A DNA stretch of 64,000 nt from contig CAVOXA010000010.1 of the NCBI GenBank assembly GCA_963700285.1, positions 224,001 through 288,000 of the forward strand, given 5' to 3'. Of this stretch, positions 31 through 24,628 are shown one piece after another. The notes below the pieces were generated by a model that saw nothing but the letters and a program-made list of their open reading frames with translations, was not told where the DNA came from and searched no databases. Source of the stretch: an uncultured Chloroflexia bacterium. GTDB taxonomy: Bacteria; Chloroflexota; Anaerolineae; JAAYZQ01. The first letter of the stretch is position 1; every line of letters begins with the position of its first letter. The position numbers were made by a program, and so were the translations under genes.

Positions 31-2967
31 GTGAAGAATAGGGCAGAGATCCTCCTGGGCTTTATCGCGGCCGTCGTCGCCGGTATTCTGGTCGGCGTAT
101 TCTTGCGGCAGATCGCCGAGACGCTGGCCGGCTGGGCCAGCCGCCTTTTTCACTTTCTCTTTGACCGCTTTGCCAGCGCTCCCCTCTTGAGCCTGCGCTA
201 CGAGAAACGCTACCGGGAGACGCTGTCAGCCGCTCTCCAGACCCTGGCCTCGTCCAACATCGTGGACCGGGACGTACGCTTGGACCAGGTCTACGTGCCG
301 GTACAGCTCACGGAAGAGACCCAGCCTGGGGGAAGCACGACCTTCGAGGACCGCTTCCAGTGGGACGAGGACCGCCGCCGCCGGCAGCGCCAGCGTGCCG
401 TCGAGCCCTGGGATGCGGTGCGCCGCTTCCAGCGGCTGGTGGTCCTGGGTGAGCCGGGCGCAGGCAAGACCACTTACCTGCACCACCTGGCCTTCATGTG
501 CGCCCAGCGGAAGCGGCTGCCTGACTACACGCCCATCTTTGTCGAGCTGCGGAACCTGGTGGGTGCTGAGCGACTGGAGGACGCGCTGCCCGCCGAGTTC
601 GCCCGGCGCAGTTTCCCCAACGCCAGGCCGTTCATCGAGCGCCGCCTGGCGGATGGGCGCTGCCTGATCCTGCTGGACGGCCTGGACGAAGTGGAGAGTG
701 AGGCCCACCACCAAGAGGTGGTGTCGCTGGTAAAGGACTTTGCCGACCGGCACGCCCGCGATCCGGAACGCGACAGTGGCCCGCGCAACATCATCGTCGT
801 CTCCTGCCGCACCTACAGCTACGAGCACGGGCCCCAACTCGCCGGCTTTACCCGGACCATGGTCATGGACTTTGACGACCCGGCCATCGAGCGCTTTGCC
901 CACAACTGGTTCCGAGATGGGGACCTGCGCCCCCTGGCCGGCGAACTGCTGGCCGTCCTGGACAGCAACCGGCGCTTCAAGGAGCTGGCCCGCAACCCGC
1001 TGCTGTTGTTGCTCATCGTCTACCACTATGAGCGGGAGCGCAACCTGCCCGACCTGCGCGCCGAACTCTACCGCCACTGTATCCGAACCCGCATCACGCG
1101 CTGGAACGTGATGCGCGGCACACACCGCGGCCGTTTCGGCGAGACCGACAAGTGGCGCATGCTGCGTGATCTGGCCCTGGATCTCTACCGCCGGGAGGAG
1201 CAGGGCCTCATCGACCGGGAGACGCTGTTGGCCTGGCTCGACGTCTTTGCCGCTGGCCTCCGCCTGCCCGAGGGCATGAATCCGGCTGACCTGCTGGACG
1301 AGGTGGTCCGCACCAGCGGCCTTGTCCAGGAACGCGCCATCGAGCGCTATGGCTTTTCGCACCTGACCCTCCAGGAGTATTTTGCCGCCGAGGGGGTGGA
1401 CCGGCTGGGGGCGCAGGCGGGGGCCGCGCTCCTGGGCGAGCGCCTGCCCGACCCCCGCTGGCAGGAGGTGATCCTGCTCTACTGCGGCCTGGCCGACGAC
1501 GCCGCACCGCTGCTGCGGCGCGTCTTGCAGCGGACCGGGGACGATGGCCCCGACGCCTGGCTCCAGGCGGCGCGCTGCCTGGCCGAGGGCGCCCGTGTTA
1601 CCGACGACGAGGTCTGCCGCGAGGCGGCCCGCGGCCTGGTGGGCCTCCTGCGCGAGGTTGAGGCTGGCGATCAGGAAGCGCTCACCGCCGAGGAAAGCGG
1701 CGAGGTCGTCGCCTCCCTGCAGTCCTTTGCCGCCGCCGAGCTGCCCGGCCACGTGTCCACCCTGCTGGAGAGCCAGCAGCCCGGCGACGCCCTGCTGGCC
1801 GCCCGCCTGCTGCCGGAGGGGGCGAACGCCGAGCTGCGGGCTGAGGTCAGCCGCCGCATGGCCGCCCTGGCCAGCGGCGGGGAGACGGTCGAGCGGCGCG
1901 TGGCTTCTGCCGCCCTGGGCTGGATTGCCGGGGCAGACGCCAGCACGGTCGCCATCCTGCGGGCGGGTCTGGCCGACCCTGACCCCGCCGCCCGGGCCGA
2001 GGCCGCCCGCGCCCTGGGCCGCCTCGGGGCCAGCGACGAGCAGACCATCGCCGGCCTGCTGCAGATCTATGCCGGCGACCCGCATGACCCAGCCCGCCAC
2101 GCAGCCCTGGAGGCCCTGCTGGTCTTGGGTCGCGCCGCCGACCTGGGCCTGGTCCCGGTTCCCGCCGGCGAATTCCTAATGGGCAGCACGGAGGACGACC
2201 GTCAGGCCGGCGACAACGAGAAACCCCAACACCGCCTCTACCTGCCCGCCTACTATATCGACCGTACCCCTGTGACCAACGCCCAGTACCAGCGTTTCAT
2301 CGAGGCCGGGGGCTATGCCAGCGCCGCCTACTGGGCCGAGGCCATTGAAGCCAGGCACTGGAAGGACGGGGCCTATGTGGAGCATCAGGCATTCGGTGGT
2401 GAGCCCCGCAGGCAGCCAGTATACTGGGAAGAGCCCAAGTGGAATGCCAACGACCAGCCGGTGGTGGGCGTCTCCTGGTACGAGGCCCTGGCCTACGCCC
2501 GCTGGGCCGGCAAGCGCCTGCCCAGCGAGGCCGAGTGGGAAAAGGCCGCCCGCTGGGACCTCGAGGCCGGCCGCAGCCGGGCCTACCCCTGGGGTGATAC
2601 CTGGGATCCAGATCGTTGCAACACCGAGGAAGCGGGGGCGGGCCAGACGACGCCAGTTGGGCAGTTTTCGCCCCGGGGCGATAGCCCCTGCGACGCGGCC
2701 GATATGGCTGGCAACGTCTGGGAGTGGTGCAGCACCCGTTGGGGCCCTGCCTACCCCTACGATCCCGACGACGGACGCGAGGACCTGGCAGGCGGTGATG
2801 ACATTGGACGCATCGTACGCGGCGGTTCCTGGTATAATGACAAATCTCGGGCGCGTTGCGCCTGCCGCAACGGGGACTACCCGCTCGACTGGGTACAACA
2901 TCAGGGGTTTTCGCTGCTGTTGCGCCACGTCTTCTCCATCCCCCGGTTCTGGATCCTGAGGTTCTGA
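31..2967 (+). CDS. DGR target protein: N-terminal TM helix, NACHT NTPase, HEAT-like repeats, C-terminal FGE-sulfatase (CLec-fold) domain carrying the VR
   Basis: Walker A GEPGAGKT, Walker B LILLDGLDE, NPLLL and FSHLTLQEYFAA NACHT/WHD motifs. FGE motifs FLMGS, RLPSEAEWEKAA, DMAGNVWEW, RGGSW. An extra G in the VR shifts the last codons; the corrected end would be ...YNIRGFRCCCATSSPSPGSGS* at 2959. Confidence 0.9.
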   Translation: MKNRAEILLGFIAAVVAGILVGVFLRQIAETLAGWASRLFHFLFDRFASAPLLSLRYEKRYRETLSAALQTLASSNIVDRDVRLDQVYVPVQLTEETQPGGSTTFEDRFQWDEDRRRRQRQRAVEPWDAVRRFQRLVVLGEPGAGKTTYLHHLAFMCAQRKRLPDYTPIFVELRNLVGAERLEDALPAEFARRSFPNARPFIERRLADGRCLILLDGLDEVESEAHHQEVVSLVKDFADRHARDPERDSGPRNIIVVSCRTYSYEHGPQLAGFTRTMVMDFDDPAIERFAHNWFRDGDLRPLAGELLAVLDSNRRFKELARNPLLLLLIVYHYERERNLPDLRAELYRHCIRTRITRWNVMRGTHRGRFGETDKWRMLRDLALDLYRREEQGLIDRETLLAWLDVFAAGLRLPEGMNPADLLDEVVRTSGLVQERAIERYGFSHLTLQEYFAAEGVDRLGAQAGAALLGERLPDPRWQEVILLYCGLADDAAPLLRRVLQRTGDDGPDAWLQAARCLAEGARVTDDEVCREAARGLVGLLREVEAGDQEALTAEESGEVVASLQSFAAAELPGHVSTLLESQQPGDALLAARLLPEGANAELRAEVSRRMAALASGGETVERRVASAALGWIAGADASTVAILRAGLADPDPAARAEAARALGRLGASDEQTIAGLLQIYAGDPHDPARHAALEALLVLGRAADLGLVPVPAGEFLMGSTEDDRQAGDNEKPQHRLYLPAYYIDRTPVTNAQYQRFIEAGGYASAAYWAEAIEARHWKDGAYVEHQAFGGEPRRQPVYWEEPKWNANDQPVVGVSWYEALAYARWAGKRLPSEAEWEKAARWDLEAGRSRAYPWGDTWDPDRCNTEEAGAGQTTPVGQFSPRGDSPCDAADMAGNVWEWCSTRWGPAYPYDPDDGREDLAGGDDIGRIVRGGSWYNDKSRARCACRNGDYPLDWVQHQGFSLLLRHVFSIPRFWILRF
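2849..2929 (+). repeat. DGR variable region (VR)
   Basis: Aligns to 4578-4657 with 10 substitutions, all opposite TR adenines, plus a 1-nt insertion at 2891-2893. Confidence 0.95.
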
Positions 2968-3004
2968 CGTGCTGGATTCTGATCGCTGGCCTGCTGCGGG
3001 GGGT

Positions 3005-3024
3005 GTGGGGGGCGTGCCCCCCAC
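3005..3024 (+). other. GC-rich hairpin downstream of VR (candidate DGR target-recognition stem-loop)
   Basis: GTGGGGGG-CGTG-CCCCCCAC: 8-bp stem, 4-nt loop. Confidence 0.55.
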
Positions 3025-3039
3025 CCGATCGCCCAGCCG

Positions 3040-3073
3040 AACCTCCCGCAGGTTTCTGAACCTGCGGGAGGTT
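3040..3073. repeat. Palindromic repeat, copy 1 (AACCTCCCGCAGGTT-N4-AACCTGCGGGAGGTT)
   Basis: Perfect 15-bp inverted repeat with a 4-nt loop; recurs at 4143 and 4524, with a variant at 4879. Confidence 0.95.
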
Positions 3074-3083
3074 GGAGATGCCC

Positions 3084-4193
3084 ATGAAGACCTACAAGAA
3101 TCTCTACCCGCGCATCTGCGCCTTTGAAAACCTGGAAATCGCCTTCCGCAAAGCGCGTCGCGGCAAGCGCCACAAGCCCAACGTCGCCGCCTTCGAGTGT
3201 AACCTGGACCTGGAGCTCCTCGATCTGCAGGACGACCTCCTCTCTGGAACCTACAGGCCCGGCGGCTACCGCCACTTTACCATCTATGAAGGCAAGCCGC
3301 GCCGCATCAGCGCCGCCCCTTTCCGCGACCGGGTGGTGCACCACGCTCTGTGCAATGTCATCGAGCCGATCTGGGAAGCCAGGTTCGTCCACGACTCGTA
3401 CGCCTGCCGCGCCGGCAAGGGCACCCACGCGGCCCTGGACCGCTGTACCCACTTTGCCCGGCGCTATCCCTACGTCCTGCAATGCGACGTCGTCCAGTTC
3501 TTTCCCTCGGTGGACCACGCCATCCTGCGTGACCTTCTGGCCCGCCACATCGCCTGCCGTTCCACCCTGAAGCTCATCGACCGGATCCTTGCCAGCGGCA
3601 CCGGCATACACAGCAAGAGCTACGAAATGCAGTGGTTCCCCGGCGACGACCTACTGGCTGCGACACGGCCCCGGGGCCTGCCCATCGGCAACCAGACCTC
3701 CCAGTTCTGGGCCAACGTCTACCTCCACGAACTGGACCGCTTTGTCAAGCAGACCCTGCACTGCCAGCGCCAGAGCCCTGCCTACCTGCGCTACTGCGAC
3801 GATTTCCTGCTCTTTGCCGGCGACAAGCCTACGCTGCACCGCTGGCGCCGAGAGATTGAGGGCTTTATGGCCACGCTACGTCTCAAAATCCATCCCCACA
3901 GGACCGTCGTCTACCCGGTCAAGAACGGCATCCCCTTTCTGGGTTTCAAGATCTATCCTGGTCACCGCCGGCTCAGGCGCTGCAACGGCGTACGCTTCCA
4001 GCGCCGCTTCCGAGCTCTGCTAGACTGCTACGCCACAGGCGAGATCGACCGAGAGCAGCTCGATGCCTCCGTCCGCGGCTGGGTGGCCCACACCTCCCAC
4101 GGCGACACCTGGGGATTGCGGCGCAGCCTACTCTCTCGCCACAACCTCCCGCAGGTTCGGAAACCTGCGGGAGGTTTGGATGGGCCACGATGA
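3084..4193 (+). CDS. DGR reverse transcriptase
   Basis: GLPIGNQTSQFWANVYL (DGR-type SQ motif), YLRYCDDF catalytic motif, PFRDRVVHHAL, FLGF. No endonuclease domain. Start placed at the ATG after GGAG. Confidence 0.95.
   Translation: MKTYKNLYPRICAFENLEIAFRKARRGKRHKPNVAAFECNLDLELLDLQDDLLSGTYRPGGYRHFTIYEGKPRRISAAPFRDRVVHHALCNVIEPIWEARFVHDSYACRAGKGTHAALDRCTHFARRYPYVLQCDVVQFFPSVDHAILRDLLARHIACRSTLKLIDRILASGTGIHSKSYEMQWFPGDDLLAATRPRGLPIGNQTSQFWANVYLHELDRFVKQTLHCQRQSPAYLRYCDDFLLFAGDKPTLHRWRREIEGFMATLRLKIHPHRTVVYPVKNGIPFLGFKIYPGHRRLRRCNGVRFQRRFRALLDCYATGEIDREQLDASVRGWVAHTSHGDTWGLRRSLLSRHNLPQVRKPAGGLDGPR
4143..4176. repeat. Palindromic repeat, copy 2 (inside the RT 3' end)
   Basis: AACCTCCCGCAGGTT-CGGA-AACCTGCGGGAGGTT. 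Confidence 0.95.
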
Positions 4194-4522
4194 AACAATC
4201 ACCCATCTTTGTCAAGCACTACGATCTTATGGCCTGGCTCATTCCTCGCACCCTGGCCTTTCCCAAGAGCCAGCGCGGGGTGCTGGCCCGCCAGGTGCAG
4301 AAGGAGCTATTTCACATCTATGAGATGCTGGTTGACGCGGGCATGGCCAATGATCCTTTGCCCCACCTTGCCGAGGTCGACAAGGGCCTCATCCGGCTGC
4401 GAACCTATCTGCGGCTGTGCCGCGACCTCAAGCTGCTGTCCATCGGCCAATACGAGCACGTTTCGCGCCTTGCAGCCGAGGTGGGAAGACTCTTGGGAGG
4501 TTGGATGCGATCCTGTGGATAG
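4190..4522 (+). CDS. avd: DGR accessory variability determinant Avd (four-helix bundle)
   Basis: 110 aa with PIF..YDL..W, FPK.QR..L and EVGRLLGGW motifs; ATGA overlap with the RT; next to the TR. Confidence 0.9.
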   Translation: MKQSPIFVKHYDLMAWLIPRTLAFPKSQRGVLARQVQKELFHIYEMLVDAGMANDPLPHLAEVDKGLIRLRTYLRLCRDLKLLSIGQYEHVSRLAAEVGRLLGGWMRSCG

Positions 4523-4523
4523 A

Positions 4524-4557
4524 AACCTCCCGCAGGTTTCCGAACCTGCGGGAGGTT
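4524..4557. repeat. Palindromic repeat, copy 3 (between avd and TR)
   Basis: AACCTCCCGCAGGTT-TCCG-AACCTGCGGGAGGTT. Confidence 0.95.
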
Positions 4558-4577
4558 CACCTTGGGGCCAGGCCGGA

Positions 4578-4657
4578 GGGCGCGTTGCGCCTACCGCAAC
4601 AGGAACAACCCGAACAACAGGAACAACAACAGGGGTTTTCGCTGCTGTTGCGCCACG
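4578..4657 (+). ncRNA. DGR template region (TR)
   Basis: AAC-rich copy of the VR (8 AAC codons, 21 adenines), outside any credible CDS. Confidence 0.95.
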
Positions 4658-4878
4658 CCTCCACCAGCATGGGTCAGAAACAGCCTCTGGTTCACGGACC
4701 CGGGGCCGGTGCCCGCGGGCTGCAGCTGCTACGCTGCAGTCCGATGGAGAAGACGATGCGGCCTGTCCCTGGCCACCTCCCCACACCCCAGCGGTGTGGG
4801 GGACGGCCGAATAGAGAATAGCCCCGCCTGGCCCAGTAGGCCCGCTCCGACATGCCGGGCGGGGCGCCTCGTCCACCG

Positions 4879-4959
4879 ACCTCCCGCAGGTACGTCCGGC
4901 TGTCCGGAGCCGGACGTACCTACCTGCGGGAGGTTTCCAATTTTGAACCTGCGGGAGGG
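4879..4959. repeat. Palindromic repeat, copy 4 (extended hairpin) plus a half-site
   Basis: ACCTCCCGCAGGTA...TACCTGCGGGAGGT at 4879-4934 with an inner stem; extra AACCTGCGGGAGG at 4946-4958. Confidence 0.85.
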
Positions 4960-5003
4960 TATGGTATACTCAGGCCGCACTGACAAGATGGGAGGGTACA
5001 ACG

Positions 5004-5294
5004 ATGGGCTTGGCTACAATGCGAGACATTTCCCTGCTGTGGCTGATCTTCCTCGGCCTGGTTTCCGTACTACCCTTTGCGGTGCTCTTTTATTTTATGA
5101 TCAGAGGTATGACCCGGCTGCGACAGTTGGCCGTGCAATACCTGCCCATTGCCCAGGAAAAGACCCGGTTCCTCGCCTTCAAGACGGAGGAGATCAGCCA
5201 TAAGGTCGCTGGCCCCATTATCAGCGTAGAGGCCAAAGCTGCGCAGGTGAACGGCATGACGAGAGCAGTCCTTTCTAGGAGGAAGAGTATATGA
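5004..5294 (+). CDS. Small hypothetical membrane protein
   Basis: GGAGG RBS, one TM segment, ATGA overlap with the next gene. Confidence 0.7.
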   Translation: MGLATMRDISLLWLIFLGLVSVLPFAVLFYFMIRGMTRLRQLAVQYLPIAQEKTRFLAFKTEEISHKVAGPIISVEAKAAQVNGMTRAVLSRRKSI

Positions 5295-5509: not shown

Positions 5510-5593
5510 GGCATCCGCCACCAGCGACTTTCCTAACCTGGCACCGACCAGTAGCTAAGAATCTGTAGCGCGAGAATGCAAGGAGGCATCGGC

Positions 5594-6433
5594 GTGTACG
5601 AAATCGTGGCCAAAGAGGATCTGGCTCCTGTCACCAAGCTGTTCGAAGTCCGGGCCCCCATCGTAGCCCACAAGGCCCGGGCTGGCCAGTTTGTCATTGT
5701 ACGTATCGATGAGGAGGGTGAGCGGGTTCCGCTGACGATCGCCGACTATGATCGTGAGCGAGGAACCATCACCCTCGTCGTGCAAGAAGTGGGCAAGACA
5801 ACCATGCAAATGGGCGCCATGCAGACCGGCGATCACTTTGCCAGCTTTACCGGGCCTCTGGGGCTGCCCAGCGAGGTCGAAGACTTGGGCACCGTGCTGT
5901 GCGTCGGCGGTGGCGTCGGGATCGCCCCCATTTACCCCATCGCCCGTGACCTCAAAGAAGCTGGCAACACCGTCTTGTCCATCATTGGCGCCCGCAACAA
6001 GGATCTGCTCTTCTGGGAGGACAAGATGCGCGCCGTCAGCGACGAGTTGATCGTCTGCACGGATGACGGATCCTACGGGCGCAAGTCCCTGGTCACCATT
6101 CCCATGAAAGAGATGCTGGATGCAGGCCGGCCCGTCGAGCACATTTGGGCCATCGGCCCGGCCATCATGATGAAGTTCTGCGCCCTCACCACCCAGCCCT
6201 TTGGCGTGCCCACCACGGTCAGCCTGAATTCGATCATGGTTGATGGTACCGGCATGTGCGGCGCCTGCCGTGTAGAGGTTGGCGGCCAGACCCGCTTTGT
6301 GTGTGTCGACGGCCCCGAGTTCGACGGTCACCAGGTCGACTGGGACCAACTTCTGGCCCGACAGCGCATCTACCTGGACCAGGAGAAGCAGGCTGTGGAA
6401 AAGTGGCAGCACGACTGCCAGTGTGGTGGCTAG
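5594..6433 (+). CDS. nfnA: NfnA/SudB-type FAD/NAD-binding [2Fe-2S] subunit of electron-bifurcating transhydrogenase
   Basis: ERVPLTIAD, GGGVGIAP and MVDGTGMCGACRV...VCVDGPEF motifs; AGGAGG RBS before the GTG. Confidence 0.9.
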   Translation: MYEIVAKEDLAPVTKLFEVRAPIVAHKARAGQFVIVRIDEEGERVPLTIADYDRERGTITLVVQEVGKTTMQMGAMQTGDHFASFTGPLGLPSEVEDLGTVLCVGGGVGIAPIYPIARDLKEAGNTVLSIIGARNKDLLFWEDKMRAVSDELIVCTDDGSYGRKSLVTIPMKEMLDAGRPVEHIWAIGPAIMMKFCALTTQPFGVPTTVSLNSIMVDGTGMCGACRVEVGGQTRFVCVDGPEFDGHQVDWDQLLARQRIYLDQEKQAVEKWQHDCQCGG

Positions 6434-6443
6434 CAAGGAGACA

Positions 6444-7913
6444 ATGATGTCAGAGCAGATCAAGGCGATGCCCAAGCACGAGCGGATGAAACTGCCGCGG
6501 CAAGGAATGCCCGTCCAGGAAGCCCAGGTTCGAGCAAAGAACTTTGAGGAGGTGGCCACGGGCTACCCTGAAGAACCAGCCCTGCTGGAAGCGTTTCGCT
6601 GCCTGCAGTGCCAACGACCCAAGTGCGTCCAGGGTTGCCCGGTCGAGGTCGACATCCCAGCTTTTATCGAACGCCTGAAGGAAGGCGACATGCCGGGCGC
6701 GGTGCAGGCCCTCAAGGGCGACAACAACTTGCCGGCCATCTGCGGCCGGGTCTGCCCCCAGGAGACCCAGTGCGAAGCCCTGTGCGTGATGGGCAAAAAA
6801 TACGAACCGGTGGCCATCGGCCGGCTGGAACGGTACGTGGCCGACTGGGACCTGGCCCATCCCGCGCCGCCGCCCCAAGTGCCGCCCCCCAGCGGCAAAA
6901 AGGTGGCCGTCATCGGCTGCGGGCCGGCAGGGTTGACCTGCGCCGGTGATCTGGCACGTTTCGGCCACAAGGTGACCATCTTTGAGTCACTGCATGCTCC
7001 CGGGGGCGTGTTGATCTATGGCATCCCCGAATTCCGCCTGCCCAAACGGGTGGTCCACGCTGAGGTAGATTACGTCCGGAGCCTGGGCGTTGAGGTCCAA
7101 CTGGACACCGTTGTCGGCAAGACCTATACCTTGGATGAACTCCTGGGTGAGCAGGGCTACGACGCGGTCTTTTTGGGCACCGGCGCTGGCTTGCCCATGT
7201 TTATGCACATCCCTGGCGAGAACTATAACGGCGTCTATTCAGCCAACGAGTTCCTGACCCGCGTCAACCTGATGAAAGCCTATCTCTTCCCCGAGTGGGA
7301 CACACCGGCCAAAGTCGGCCGCAAGGTGGCCGTCATCGGGGCCGGCAACGTGGCCATGGACAGCGCGCGCTGCGCCCTACGCCTGGGCGCCGAGGCGGTC
7401 CACATCGTCTACCGGCGCTCGGCCGAAGAGGTTCCCGCCCGTGCCGAAGAGGTTCACCACGCCGAAGAAGAGGGCATCATCTTTGATTTCCTGACCAACC
7501 CGATCGAGATCCATGGCGATGACAAGGGCTGGGTACGCGGCATGCGTTGCATCCGCATGCAACTGGGCGAACCCGACGCCAGCGGACGCCGCCGCCCACT
7601 GCCCATTGAGGGCTCTGAATTCGATATGGACGTGGATATGGTGGTCATGGCCCTCGGCACCCGGCCCAACCCCCTGGTCTTTACCGACGCGGGCGGTCTG
7701 GAGCGTACCCGCTGGGGTACCGTCGTGGCCGACGAGGATTCGGGCAAAACGACCAAGGATCGTGTCTGGGCCGGCGGCGACATTGTCACCGGCGCGGCCA
7801 CGGTCATCTCGGCCATGGGCGCCGGGAAGCGTGCTGCCGCCGACATCGAACGCTTCCTACAGCAGGAAGCCGTACCGGAGGCCGACGCAGAAGCGATGGC
7901 TACCGCAGGCTAG
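6444..7913 (+). CDS. nfnB: NfnB/SudA (GltD-like) NADPH-dependent subunit
   Basis: RCLQC..PKC..GCP, ICGRVCPQE.QCE, GCGPAGL, GAGNVAMD motifs; paired with nfnA. Confidence 0.9.
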   Translation: MMSEQIKAMPKHERMKLPRQGMPVQEAQVRAKNFEEVATGYPEEPALLEAFRCLQCQRPKCVQGCPVEVDIPAFIERLKEGDMPGAVQALKGDNNLPAICGRVCPQETQCEALCVMGKKYEPVAIGRLERYVADWDLAHPAPPPQVPPPSGKKVAVIGCGPAGLTCAGDLARFGHKVTIFESLHAPGGVLIYGIPEFRLPKRVVHAEVDYVRSLGVEVQLDTVVGKTYTLDELLGEQGYDAVFLGTGAGLPMFMHIPGENYNGVYSANEFLTRVNLMKAYLFPEWDTPAKVGRKVAVIGAGNVAMDSARCALRLGAEAVHIVYRRSAEEVPARAEEVHHAEEEGIIFDFLTNPIEIHGDDKGWVRGMRCIRMQLGEPDASGRRRPLPIEGSEFDMDVDMVVMALGTRPNPLVFTDAGGLERTRWGTVVADEDSGKTTKDRVWAGGDIVTGAATVISAMGAGKRAAADIERFLQQEAVPEADAEAMATAG

Positions 7914-10735: not shown

Positions 10736-10759
10736 ACCCCACCCCCTAGGGGGTGGGGT
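10736..10759. promoter_or_regulatory. Putative CsoR operator
   Basis: Perfect 24-bp palindrome ACCCCACCCCCTAGGGGGTGGGGT between the -10 and the csoR RBS; C/G tracts are typical of CsoR operators. Confidence 0.75.
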
Positions 10760-10779
10760 ATCTTGAGGGAGTGCGGGAA

Positions 10780-11058
10780 ATGGCCGAGGAGTACAAACAG
10801 GCAATTATCAACCGGTTGAAGAGTATCGAGGGGCATGCGCGCGGTATCCAGCGTATGATAGACGAGGATGCCTATTGCATCGACATCATCAACCAGAACT
10901 TGGCCGTACAGCGGGCACTGGAAAAGGTCAATAGCTTGATCCTAGAGCGCCACCTCCAGACCTGCGTGACCACGGCCCTCCGCAGCGATGACCCGGCGGA
11001 AAGGGAGAGGGTCATCACCGAGATCATGAATGTATTTGAGACGACAGGCAAGTTGTAA
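10780..11058 (+). CDS. csoR: Copper-sensing repressor CsoR
   Basis: RLKSIEGHARGIQRMI..DAYCIDI...HLQTCV (C-H-C metal site). Confidence 0.9.
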   Translation: MAEEYKQAIINRLKSIEGHARGIQRMIDEDAYCIDIINQNLAVQRALEKVNSLILERHLQTCVTTALRSDDPAERERVITEIMNVFETTGKL

Positions 11059-11136
11059 AGACATTTTTCCAGTTTCGTGTTGCGTGATTGCCACCTCATG
11101 GTGCACGTAACACGCAACGTGACTGAGGAGGTCCAG

Positions 11137-11340
11137 ATGAAGACGATTACCTTGAGTATTCCCAATATTAGCTGCAACCACTGCGTGATGACGGTTAAGC
11201 GCGAGGCCGGCTTTGTGGATGGCGCCGAGTTCCTGAGCGGTGATGTGGAAGCCAAAACCGCCACGTTCCAGGTCGCGAGCGACGAGGCGCTGACCACCCT
11301 CAAGTCGACGCTGGCCGAGGCCGGATATCCGGCAGACTAG
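11137..11340 (+). CDS. copZ: Copper chaperone CopZ (HMA domain)
   Basis: ISCNHC motif; GAGGAGG RBS. Confidence 0.85.
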   Translation: MKTITLSIPNISCNHCVMTVKREAGFVDGAEFLSGDVEAKTATFQVASDEALTTLKSTLAEAGYPAD

Positions 11341-11456
11341 CGGACGAACTGGAAAGAGGTAGATCCGGGGGCCGGGAACCACCGCACCAGCACACTTGCC
11401 CGCAACTACCCAACTTATCAGAGTACCAATAACCGATCTATCACCATCCCGAGGCC

Positions 11457-13955
11457 ATGTCGACCAAACAAGTAACCCTGCCCGTCACGGGCATGACCTG
11501 CGCCAACTGCTCGCTGAACGTAGAGCGCAACCTGAAGCGCTTGGACGGCGTTGAAACGGCCACAGTAAACCTGGCCACCGAGAGAGCATCAGTCACCTAT
11601 GATCCCTCGGTCGTCGGTGAGGGCCAATTTCTTGCCCTCATCCGCGACATCGGGTATGATGTGGCGACGGCCAAGGCAGAACTACCCATAACGGGTATGA
11701 CCTGCGCGAATTGCTCCATGACGGTAGAGAGAACACTGAACCGCCTCGATGGGGTCGTGTCGGCCAACGTCAACCTGGCCAGCGAGCGGGCCAGCGTGGA
11801 ATACCTGCCCGGCGCCATCAGTCTGGCGGCCATCCAGCAGGCGATCCGGGACGTGGGTTACGATGTGATCATCACAGGGGAGGGCGAGGCGGCCGAAGAC
11901 GTAGAGCGCGCCGCCCGCGAGGCCGAGATCCGCGACCAGACCCGAAAGTTCTGGGTGGGCGCAGCCTTCACCTTGCCGCTCTTTTTGCTGAGCATGGGGC
12001 GCGATTTTGGCCTCCTGGGCGCGTGGGCCTACGCGCCATGGGTCAACTGGCTCTTCCTGGTCCTGGCCACGCCCGTCCAGTTCTACGTCGGCGGTGACTA
12101 TTACGTAGGCGCCTACAAGAGCTTGCGGTCCGGGTCAGCCAACATGGACGTATTGGTGGCCATGGGCTCATCGGCCGCGTACTTTTACAGTCTGGCCGTG
12201 TTGCTGTTCCCCGGCCTGGGTGGCCACGTCTATTTCGAGACGTCGGCCATGATCATCACCCTCATCAAGCTGGGCAAGGTGCTCGAGGCTCGGGCCAAGG
12301 GCCGCACCTCCGAGGCCATCAAAAAGCTCATGGGGTTGCGCCCCAAGACAGCGCACGTGCTTCGAGACGGCTCTGAAGTAGAAATCCCCATCGAGTCCGT
12401 GGCACTGGCCGATGTGGTGGTGGTACGCCCCGGCGAGCGGCTGCCGGTGGATGGCGTCGTCATCGATGGCCGTTCAGCGGTCGATGAGTCGATGCTCACC
12501 GGCGAGAGCTTGCCTGTGGACAAGGGACCGGGTGATGAGGTCGTGGGCGGGACGATCAACAAGCAGGGATTGCTCAGATTTGAGGCCACCCGCGTGGGCG
12601 CTCAGACAGCATTGGCCCAGATCATCCGCCTTGTCGAAGAGGCCCAGGGGTCCAAAGCACCCATCCAAAGGCTGACCGATCGCGTCTCGGCGGTCTTTGT
12701 ACCAGCAGTCATCCTCATCGCCGCGCTCACTTTCCTGGCCTGGTTCTTTATCGGCGACGTGGGTTTCACCCAGAGCATGATCTTTATGGTTTCTGTGCTG
12801 GTCATTGCCTGCCCCTGCGCCCTGGGTCTGGCCACGCCCACGGCCATCATGGTCGGCACCGGCAAGGGTGCAGAGCACGGCATCTTGTTCAAGAACAGCG
12901 AGGCCCTGGAGCGAGCCCACGAACTCACGACGGTTGTCCTGGACAAGACCGGCACGATCACCAAGGGTGAGCCATCCATGACCGATGTGGTGCCGATAAA
13001 CGGCAAAGATCTGGCCATTGGCTCATTGACCGGTTCCTCCTTGCTCCGCTTGGCAGCGTCTGCGGAGAGGGGTTCCGAGCACCCCCTGGGCCAGGCAATC
13101 GTCCGGGGCGCGGTGGAAGAGGGCCTGGAACTGGCCGAACCAAACGGGTTTGAGGCGGTGGTAGGTCAGGGTATCATAGCGACCGTGGAGGGCCGGCAGG
13201 TGCTGGTGGGCTCGCCGAGGCTGTTGGAAGAACGCCGCGTGGCACTCAACAGGCTAGTGGCACCCTTGGCGCGGTTGGAGGCTGAGGCCAAGACGGCGAT
13301 GCTCGTGGCCGTGGACGGCGATGCGGTGGGCATCATCGCTGTGGCCGATACCATCAAAGAGGGCTCCGCCGAGGCGATCCGGCAGATGCAAGCCCTGGGT
13401 CTAGAAGTGGTCATGATCACCGGCGACAACCAGCGCACAGCCGAGGCCATTGTCCGACAGCTTGTCCCGAGCAACGTCGAAGGGCTTGCCCTTGGCGGAC
13501 GAGAAGGGGCAGGCATCAGCCGTGTGGTCGCCCAGGTGCTGCCCGGTGAGAAGGTGGATCAGGTGAAAGCCCTGCAAGCGGACACGGATGCCACAATCGG
13601 CATGGTCGGCGATGGCATCAACGATGCCCCAGCCCTGGCCCAGGCGGACGTAGGCATTGCCATCGGCACCGGCACGGACGTCGCCATGGCCGCCGCCGAT
13701 GTGACGCTCATGAGCGGCGACCTGCGCGGGGTGCCGCGGGCCATTGCCCTCAGCCGGGCGACCATGCGAACCATCAAGCAGAACCTATTCTGGGCCTTGT
13801 TTTACAACGTGATCCTGATTCCGCTGGCGGCAGGGGTCTTTTATCCATCGCTGGGAATTCACCTGCACCCTGTTCTGGCTGCCGCGGCGATGGCCTTTAG
13901 CAGCATTTTCGTCGTTACCAACTCTCTGCGACTGCGCAGGGTGAAGCTAATTTGA
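11457..13955 (+). CDS. copA: Cu(I)-translocating P1B-type ATPase
   Basis: Two GMTCANC domains, [26 protein letters not shown] and MAFSS motifs. Confidence 0.95.
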
Positions 13956-24551: not shown

Positions 24552-24561
24552 ATCGTGTCGT

Positions 24562-24609
24562 AGACACGCCATGTCGCAGACACGCCATGTCGCAGACACG
24601 CCATGTCGC
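24562..24609 (+). repeat. Tandem repeat, 3 x 16 bp (AGACACGCCATGTCGC)
   Basis: Three perfect copies with degenerate flanking partial copies. Confidence 0.95.
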
Positions 24610-24628
24610 GAGACACATTGAGGACCAA

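Follow-up and report, generated by a model that had tools for sequence, protein, structure and literature searches.

A diversity-generating retroelement (DGR) occupies the start of the window, by which we mean the whole 64,000-nucleotide stretch analysed (C10:224001-288000 of genome G000, from an uncultured Chloroflexia bacterium), and it is almost certainly a genuine element that has diversified its target gene. The cassette lies on the forward strand in the order target, reverse transcriptase (RT), avd and template repeat (TR); coordinates are window positions unless a contig is named. DGRs of this type are already known and common, and targets that join NACHT and C-type lectin (CLec) domains have been published as clade 5D (Doré 2024, PMC10907252). 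The source genome comprises 7.05 Mb in 22 contigs and is 89% complete and 6.5% contaminated. To judge by the names of three target homologues (P0019, P0034 and P0040), its host probably belongs to the Anaerolineae (Chloroflexota). A preliminary description had placed the element at 31..4960, and both ends need correction. The target gene (1-2967 in the window) has a frame that continues open beyond the window edge, and it probably starts with an ATG at C10:223854 (window −146), 147 nt before the window, rather than at 31, and positions 4875-4960 hold a repetitive extragenic palindrome (REP) and a promoter-like site that are not part of the DGR.

The TR (4578-4657) is 80 nt long and contains 21 adenines, and the variable repeat (VR; 2849-2929), near the 3' end of the target gene, is 81 nt long. 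When the two are aligned with a one-base gap, all 10 mismatches lie opposite TR adenines (p=2.1e-7 if mismatches are placed uniformly), in agreement with the count and the adenine bias first reported. The accompanying claim that non-A mismatches are absent holds for the gapped alignment only, since the ungapped repeats differ at 34 positions, 20 of them non-A; the insertion and the resulting frameshift had been missed. Read in the target frame, the TR adenines fall in one TAC, eight AAC, three AGG and one ACG codon, and no change of A turns any of these into a stop, again as initially described. The diversity space of the TR amounts to 4.4e12 DNA variants and 1.1e12 protein variants. The genome-wide scan for remote targets that had been proposed was run with A as a wildcard and returned no match to this TR; the best outside candidates (27 and 26 of 31 non-A positions, in the 5' half) were rejected as belonging to another TR type.

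The RT gene (3084-4193) encodes an intact protein of 369 residues, and its stop overlaps the start of avd (ATGA), which in turn encodes an intact protein of 110 residues (4190-4522). The RT carries GLPIGNQTSQ at residue 198 and YCDD at residue 237. The SQ motif is diagnostic for DGR RTs, and here it aligned with 8ub7, which we take to be the Bordetella phage bRT and which was the closest PDB match (E 5e-50, compared with 9e-21 for a group II RT). Avd scored 89 bits against NF033474 (cut-off 80) and 71.5 bits against PF22296 (cut-off 40). Phylogenetic analysis of 34 RTs placed that of the window with 18 RTs of the class and with the DGR RTs of BMP-1, ANMV-1, Acaryochloris and Prosthecochloris (support 99/98); three group II intron-type RTs and eight retron-like RTs, the latter scoring below the NF038233 cut-off, fell on separate branches. 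Together with a score against TIGR04416 of 145 bits, below the cut-off of 300, and no Rfam match at gathering score, this placement led us to reject a group II intron or retron identity. The motifs and the intact Avd noted at the outset were thus confirmed, and the suggested RT phylogeny favours a DGR. The RT is 50% identical to DGR RTs of cyanobacterial plasmids, compared with 34% to that of BMP-1; the tree contains no named 5D sequence, and branching among the DGR references is unsupported there. A second open RT of 484 codons, at C10:652000-654200, groups with group II intron maturases.

The orthologous locus is present in G001, the sole other genome of the genus. The flanks of the window are syntenic between the two (about 90% identity across most of the 75 kb compared), which indicates that the cassette resides in the chromosome and did not arrive recently as a prophage. 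The TR of G001 is identical at 80 of 80 positions, and its VR differs from the TR at 13 positions, all of them adenines, in a gap-free alignment (p=6e-10). Across the locus, identity between the two genomes is 100% for the TR, 97% for avd, 95% for the spacer that follows the TR, 90% for the RT, 90-92% for the target and 79% for the VR, set against a coding background of about 90%. With an identical TR and a different, adenine-only VR, the comparison of the two assemblies shows that the target has diversified since the split from the sister species. The G001 RT has an insertion of eight codons.

Further features lie around the repeats. The invariant 3' end of the VR and a putative initiation of mutagenic homing (IMH) site (2906-2938) diverge from the corresponding IMH* after 2929. 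Downstream of the TR, IMH* and the spacer (Sp; 4658-4874) contain predicted stem-loops, one of which is followed by a conserved AATA near 4810. When 4558-4874 was folded (z −3.09), the TR stayed open and 4564-4574 paired with spacer positions at about 4760-4770; these segments are the predicted 5' and 3' strands of a long-range RNA duplex that would enclose the TR in the manner of the cPRT Stop structure. Over 20 loci, the 5' flank made 9.4 Watson-Crick pairs with its own spacer compared with 7.2 with other spacers, and 0 of 2000 permutations did as well; this p overstates the case, as the 20 loci were chosen from 29 with a detected TR, the strands were picked by motif and the loci are kin. 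A G/C hairpin at 3001-3026, after short TTCTG-like repeats, is a candidate target-recognition hairpin; alone it reached a z of only −1.97, and it is deleted in G001. After many VRs of the class (loci L056-L095), as in the window at 2960-3026, several TTCTG-like repeats lead into a hairpin that is built of a G-run and a C-run and has a variable loop. Four independent lines, namely the RT tree, Avd, the adenine-only VR of G001 and the covarying TR-flank duplex, therefore support the proposal of BPP-1-type mutagenic retrohoming. Neither outcome named beforehand as refuting it, an RT grouping with group II introns or retrons or a lack of bias to A among the mismatches, was obtained. By analogy with BPP-1, the RT-Avd complex would bind RNA with paired TR flanks, prime in cis and misincorporate at adenines, and the mutated cDNA would replace the VR at the IMH, aided by the downstream hairpin.

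The target protein has 1037 residues, with a predicted signal peptide (7-25) and a predicted transmembrane (TM) helix (66-84) separated by a Pro/Thr stalk, followed by NACHT (194-355), HEAT (670-755) and formylglycine-generating enzyme (FGE)-type CLec (766-1019) domains. Matches to PF05729 (42 bits, cut-off 26.7) and PF03781 (E 5e-58) supply the central signal transduction ATPase with numerous domains (STAND) NTPase and the single CLec expected of a clade 5D target (Roux 2021, Doré 2024). A search with residues 1-480 returned 44 proteins at E 1e-54 or better. Both N-terminal hydrophobic segments are present in 32 of the first 45 homologue rows, most of the others being N-terminally truncated, and 39 of the 45 extend to the VR, all in frame and with 39 distinct VR segments. 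Lys, Glu, Gln and Met, which are unreachable from AAC, account for 1 of 510 VR residues in the family compared with 1229 of 7161 in the rest of the CLec domain; by these counts, the residue alphabet of the VR is that expected from adenine mutagenesis of AAC. Among the 401 genomes of the class, a search at E 1e-60 detected the NACHT subfamily in three; in the third of these, G132, it again lies upstream of a DGR RT, here truncated. A search with the family alignment, which captures generic motifs, gave only distant proteins (28-46% identical). The model of an in-frame relative, P0042, reached a predicted local distance difference test (pLDDT) score of 88 with 38 alignment rows and matches FGE-fold structures. 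Because a signal peptide is followed by one TM helix, the protein would be oriented N-out, C-in, with a short arm outside and the NACHT-HEAT-CLec part in the cytoplasm. We give about equal weight for and against the target being a sensor of invaders resembling NOD-like receptors (NLRs); in such a role, ligand binding by the CLec domain would cause the NACHT domains to oligomerize at the membrane and so trigger defence.

Several observations weigh against a working DGR that diversifies an immune sensor. Neither G000 nor G001 carries an intact target allele. The VR and its extra base were read from assembled contigs; the sequencing runs listed as matching numbered seven, all consisting of assembled contigs of other samples (word share <=0.10) with no RNA data among them, and the four of these contig sets compared with the window held mostly relatives about 90-95% alike. 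Frameshifts occur elsewhere in the assembly: across 24 randomly chosen stretches of 50 kb, a codon model called 0.2-7.2 per 10 kb coding. The post-VR hairpin does not have the GRNA loop that is needed in BPP-1, where the stem sequence is variable and the loop must be GRNA according to PMC3240598; neither this native hairpin nor the REP has such a loop on the sense strand. For the target itself, Pfam, NCBIfam and PADLOC revealed no effector domain, no effector gene was evident, and PADLOC returned only a weak HEAT match. The signal peptide and TM assignments rest on hydropathy and conservation and not on a dedicated predictor.

How far the element may have passed beyond activity is the first question that these points raise. 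The preliminary description had called the DGR complete, which is true of the machinery and not of the target allele, which as assembled is frameshifted in the VR. It had also proposed recent activity; diversification since the sister-species split bears this out in part, and we think it moderately probable that the DGR is active today. The alternative is a decaying DGR, formerly active, in which the target has become a pseudogene in both species, retrohoming has stopped and the REPs are part of the decay. It would account for the frameshifted target of G000 and the broken one of G001, where the orthologue (C20 ~483520-486480) has an in-frame TAG and several frameshifts from one-base deletions, for the loss of the native post-VR hairpin in G001, and for the four other DGR loci of G000 that have lost RT, avd or TR; MITE-like repeats, that is, repeats resembling miniature inverted-repeat transposable elements, are moreover described as degrading DGR loci in Doré 2024 (PMC10907252). 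On the other hand, RT and avd are intact in both species, and avd (97%), the TR (100%) and Sp (95%) exceed the coding background of about 90%. The RT-avd overlap is preserved despite the REP within the last codons of the RT, and the G000 target can be read without interruption for its first 1000 codons. The G001 assembly is error-rich (3.8 frameshifts per 10 kb by the codon model in the synteny block), and the TAG and frameshifts of its target may be errors of that assembly. On balance decay is a rather unlikely explanation.

The second question concerns the side of the membrane on which the diversified domain lies. If the CLec faced outward, it would diversify a surface adhesin or a decoy for phage receptors and not a cytoplasmic immune sensor. 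According to PMC8144416, most cellular DGR targets possess a TM segment or a signal peptide and are interpreted as binders of extracellular substrates, and a periplasmic NACHT-CLec protein is predicted for one DGR 3 target in Doré 2024 (PMC10907252). An outward CLec is nevertheless improbable for this protein, for which the signal peptide and single TM helix predict the opposite orientation and in which no hydrophobic segment follows residue 91. In addition, the NACHT domain has an intact P-loop, and a P-loop NACHT requires cytoplasmic ATP.

The extra base of the VR also calls for an explanation. It maps to 2890-2894 (+), adjoining an AGG-AAC junction of the TR; dropping any one base of this run leaves 10 mismatches, compared with 11 when 2895 is dropped. 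It moves the final codons of the target out of the GFRCC ending of the family, with the assembled gene running to a stop at 2965-2967 and the family frame stopping at 2957-2959. The base is absent from G001 and from all 39 family proteins that extend to the VR. As an attempt to phase indels to G000 or G001 by substitutions left 84 of 127 events uninformative, we replaced it by the codon-model count, which made six calls in the window, or about 1.1 per 10 kb coding; two of the six lie at gene overlaps, and the VR frameshift is not among them. This and the other counts come from our own model and include false positives. From these rates, any 81-nt interval would contain a background error with a probability of about 1% at the local rate and at most about 6%. 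In PMC5758913, VR indels that shift the frame are recorded for 11 of the 372 curated DGRs, with 74% of indels adjoining AAC. Our sample of the class, 32 VRs from 44 loci of which 15 yielded no TR by the search pattern used, contained 551 mismatches at A compared with 38 at other bases and seven net frameshifts. Once the five VRs from G000 and G001 are set aside, together with L056, whose gap lies at an alignment edge and is absent from another alignment of that locus, net frameshifts remain in 3 of 27 VRs, all three in assemblies of 130-210 contigs.

Given the low chance of background error, the published indels and the class sample, we favour a cause specific to the VR and regard the extra base as most likely a by-product of the DGR. 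Of the two forms that this could take, a true retrohoming slip next to AAC comes close to an even chance, and a consensus merged from several VR alleles is only slightly less likely; an ordinary sequencing error is doubtful. It could also be argued that the frameshifted tail is a functional variant, in which the Gly-Phe and hydrophobic residues of the shifted frame complete the fold. The GF of that frame aligns with the GFR strand of the family, and Wu et al. suggest that non-canonical changes may add diversity (PMC5758913). Such an ending is shared by 0 of the 39 family proteins that reach the VR, and the shift removes both the conserved Arg and the CC-ATSS tail, which makes a functional tail very unlikely. 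A fold model of the assembled CLec with the shifted tail reached a pLDDT of 49, a value that, with a 12-row alignment, is not comparable with that of the 38-row P0042 model.

The cassette is also interspersed with REP hairpins, which carry no strand assignment. They lie at 3040-3073 (15-bp stem, 4-nt loop), at 4143-4176 inside the final RT codons and at 4524-4557 between avd and the TR region, and REP arms with a longer palindromic spacer (4879-4934) mark the boundary of the cassette. Beyond this boundary, an extended −10 promoter-like site (4943-4970) precedes the gene at 5004, with its −35 hexamer at the edge of a REP half-site. Directly upstream of the window, a gene for a Y1 transposase resembling the REP-associated tyrosine transposases (RAYTs) occupies C10:223214-223792, flanked by the same hairpins; it matches PF01797 over cut-off and NF047646 at 74 bits, just under the cut-off of 80. 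The 34-nt hairpin has five perfect short-loop copies in G000, all at this locus (on both sides of the RAYT-like gene and at 3040, 4143 and 4524). When one mismatch per arm was allowed, 26 hairpins were found genome-wide, 17 of them forming REPIN-type doublets of 92-96 nt. Two REPIN-like doublets lie at C10:221922 and C10:222030.

Judged by their distribution, the hairpins belong to the transposase and not to the DGR, and represent local colonization by the neighbouring RAYT-like gene. This follows from three results: the closest RAYT homologues elsewhere carry the same REP hairpin without a DGR; flanks of up to 6 kb around 40 homologous RAYT loci (top-scoring matches, several on short contigs) contain no RT, avd, CLec or NACHT in any case; and only 2 of 40 DGR loci of the class have a RAYT-like gene within 10 kb. 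A further locus, L082, gave a match only with a query set that included an IS200-like protein, and another co-location, G243:C427, lies outside those sets. A general RAYT-DGR module was rejected on the two counts of 40. Compared with known RAYT/TnpA-REP systems, the gene is alike in its PF01797 match, its flanking hairpins and the dispersed 92-96 nt doublets with the same arms, and it differs in that short hairpins sit at the junctions of neighbouring DGR genes. No description of REP or RAYT inside a DGR was found among the literature matches listed. Two further RAYT-like genes lie beside orphan NACHT-CLec genes with VR-like ends (L111:9900-15830 and L112:6500-9400), and at L112 the RAYT, with REPs on its flanks, comes after the remnant of a DGR RT, a stub of 28 codons.

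That RAYT, REP and DGR form one functional module, with the REP as target hairpin nicked by the HUH nuclease, draws on the confinement of all five perfect copies to this locus, on the three of three RAYT-like genes of the subfamily in G000 that adjoin NACHT-CLec genes whose ends resemble VRs (in one case immediately behind an RT stub) and on the REP kept in G001 as the hairpin nearest the diversified VR, and is highly improbable in view of the 0 of 40 and 2 of 40 loci and of the same REP without a DGR beside the nearest homologues. A coupling restricted to the genus, in which the REP replaces the recognition hairpin and an HUH nick supplies or tunes the cut that admits mutated cDNA into the gene for a membrane-tethered NLR, has an equally slim prospect. 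A functional link would be informative about the route by which DGR cDNA gets into its target; the class-wide test speaks against it.

The colonized DGR itself can be compared with others in the genome and the class. A search at E 1e-40 detected RT homologues in 95 of the 401 genomes of the class, mostly as CLec target-RT-avd-TR and often with NACHT. L079, L084, L085, L087, L089, L090 and L094 have other gene orders (TR upstream of the RT, or RT or avd inverted), which on gene arrangement indicate rearrangement within one RT lineage. G000 has a single avd. Of its four degenerate loci, C1:1725083 and C14:612318 have lost avd through two independent deletions, each of which joined the RT gene directly to the 3' portion of its TR; at C1 the junction coincides with an IGFR reading common to RT and TR. 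Two targets but neither RT nor TR are present at C10:1.333-1.338 Mb, and at C10:1.496 Mb a target is accompanied by a RAYT-like gene and by an RT stub of 28 codons.

The closest published parallel is clade 5D, whose DGRs have NACHT-CLec targets, some with a TM segment, and for which a sensor role is proposed (Doré 2024, PMC10907252); among the matches listed from Dataset S3 of that paper, nine of nine Chloroflexota rows are 5D. As described there for DGR 3 of Thiohalocapsa PB-PSB1 and for Levilinea saccharolytica, the locus is chromosomal, with a NACHT and FGE-type CLec target, several degenerate sister loci and palindromic repeats within loci, and the pattern of one complete and several degenerate loci in Thiohalocapsa is mirrored in G000. 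Our DGR differs in having one target instead of the two usual in the loci described, a signal peptide, a Pro/Thr stalk, one TM helix and HEAT before the CLec (HEAT does not appear in the main text of PMC10907252), an 80-nt TR compared with about 100-110 nt in most class loci, and repeats that are REPs of an adjacent RAYT-like gene in place of the MITEs derived from insertion sequences described in that account. With BPP-1/BMP-1 (mtd-avd-TR-brt) it shares the RT, Avd, an AAC-rich TR, adenine-only substitutions and IMH/IMH* divergence, as well as a flank duplex, stem-loop and adenosines as in the cPRT Stop depicted in 10.1101/2023.10.23.563531. Unlike BPP-1, the element is cellular, has the order target-RT-avd-TR and does not target a tail fibre, and its post-VR hairpin lies about 70 nt from the VR without a GRNA loop, compared with 4-34 bp and GRNA in PMC3240598.

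The surroundings contain other genes. A XerC/XerD-like tyrosine recombinase gene, below all NCBIfam cut-offs, lies upstream of the RAYT-like gene (C10:222173-223153), and further upstream is a divergent cluster of MoxR and von Willebrand factor A-type genes recognized from translations of open reading frames. Ordinary neighbours in the window include a dehydrogenase/glutamate-synthase-small-subunit pair (5576-7913); a copper-sensing repressor with a heavy-metal P-type ATPase (10753-13955) and a 16-nt tandem repeat of 3.8 copies (24556-24616) were also noted. A tRNA scan found nothing.

As a DGR the cassette is ordinary, one of many such cassettes in the class and of a published type. Its VR indel is of a kind easily overlooked, and may in its own right be a sign of polymorphism or slippage. 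The target stands for a coherent family, some 44 NACHT-HEAT-CLec proteins that cross the membrane once and have hypervariable tips and no visible effector domain. These offer compact candidates for testing whether clade-5 DGRs diversify immune sensors, an idea still awaiting proof.

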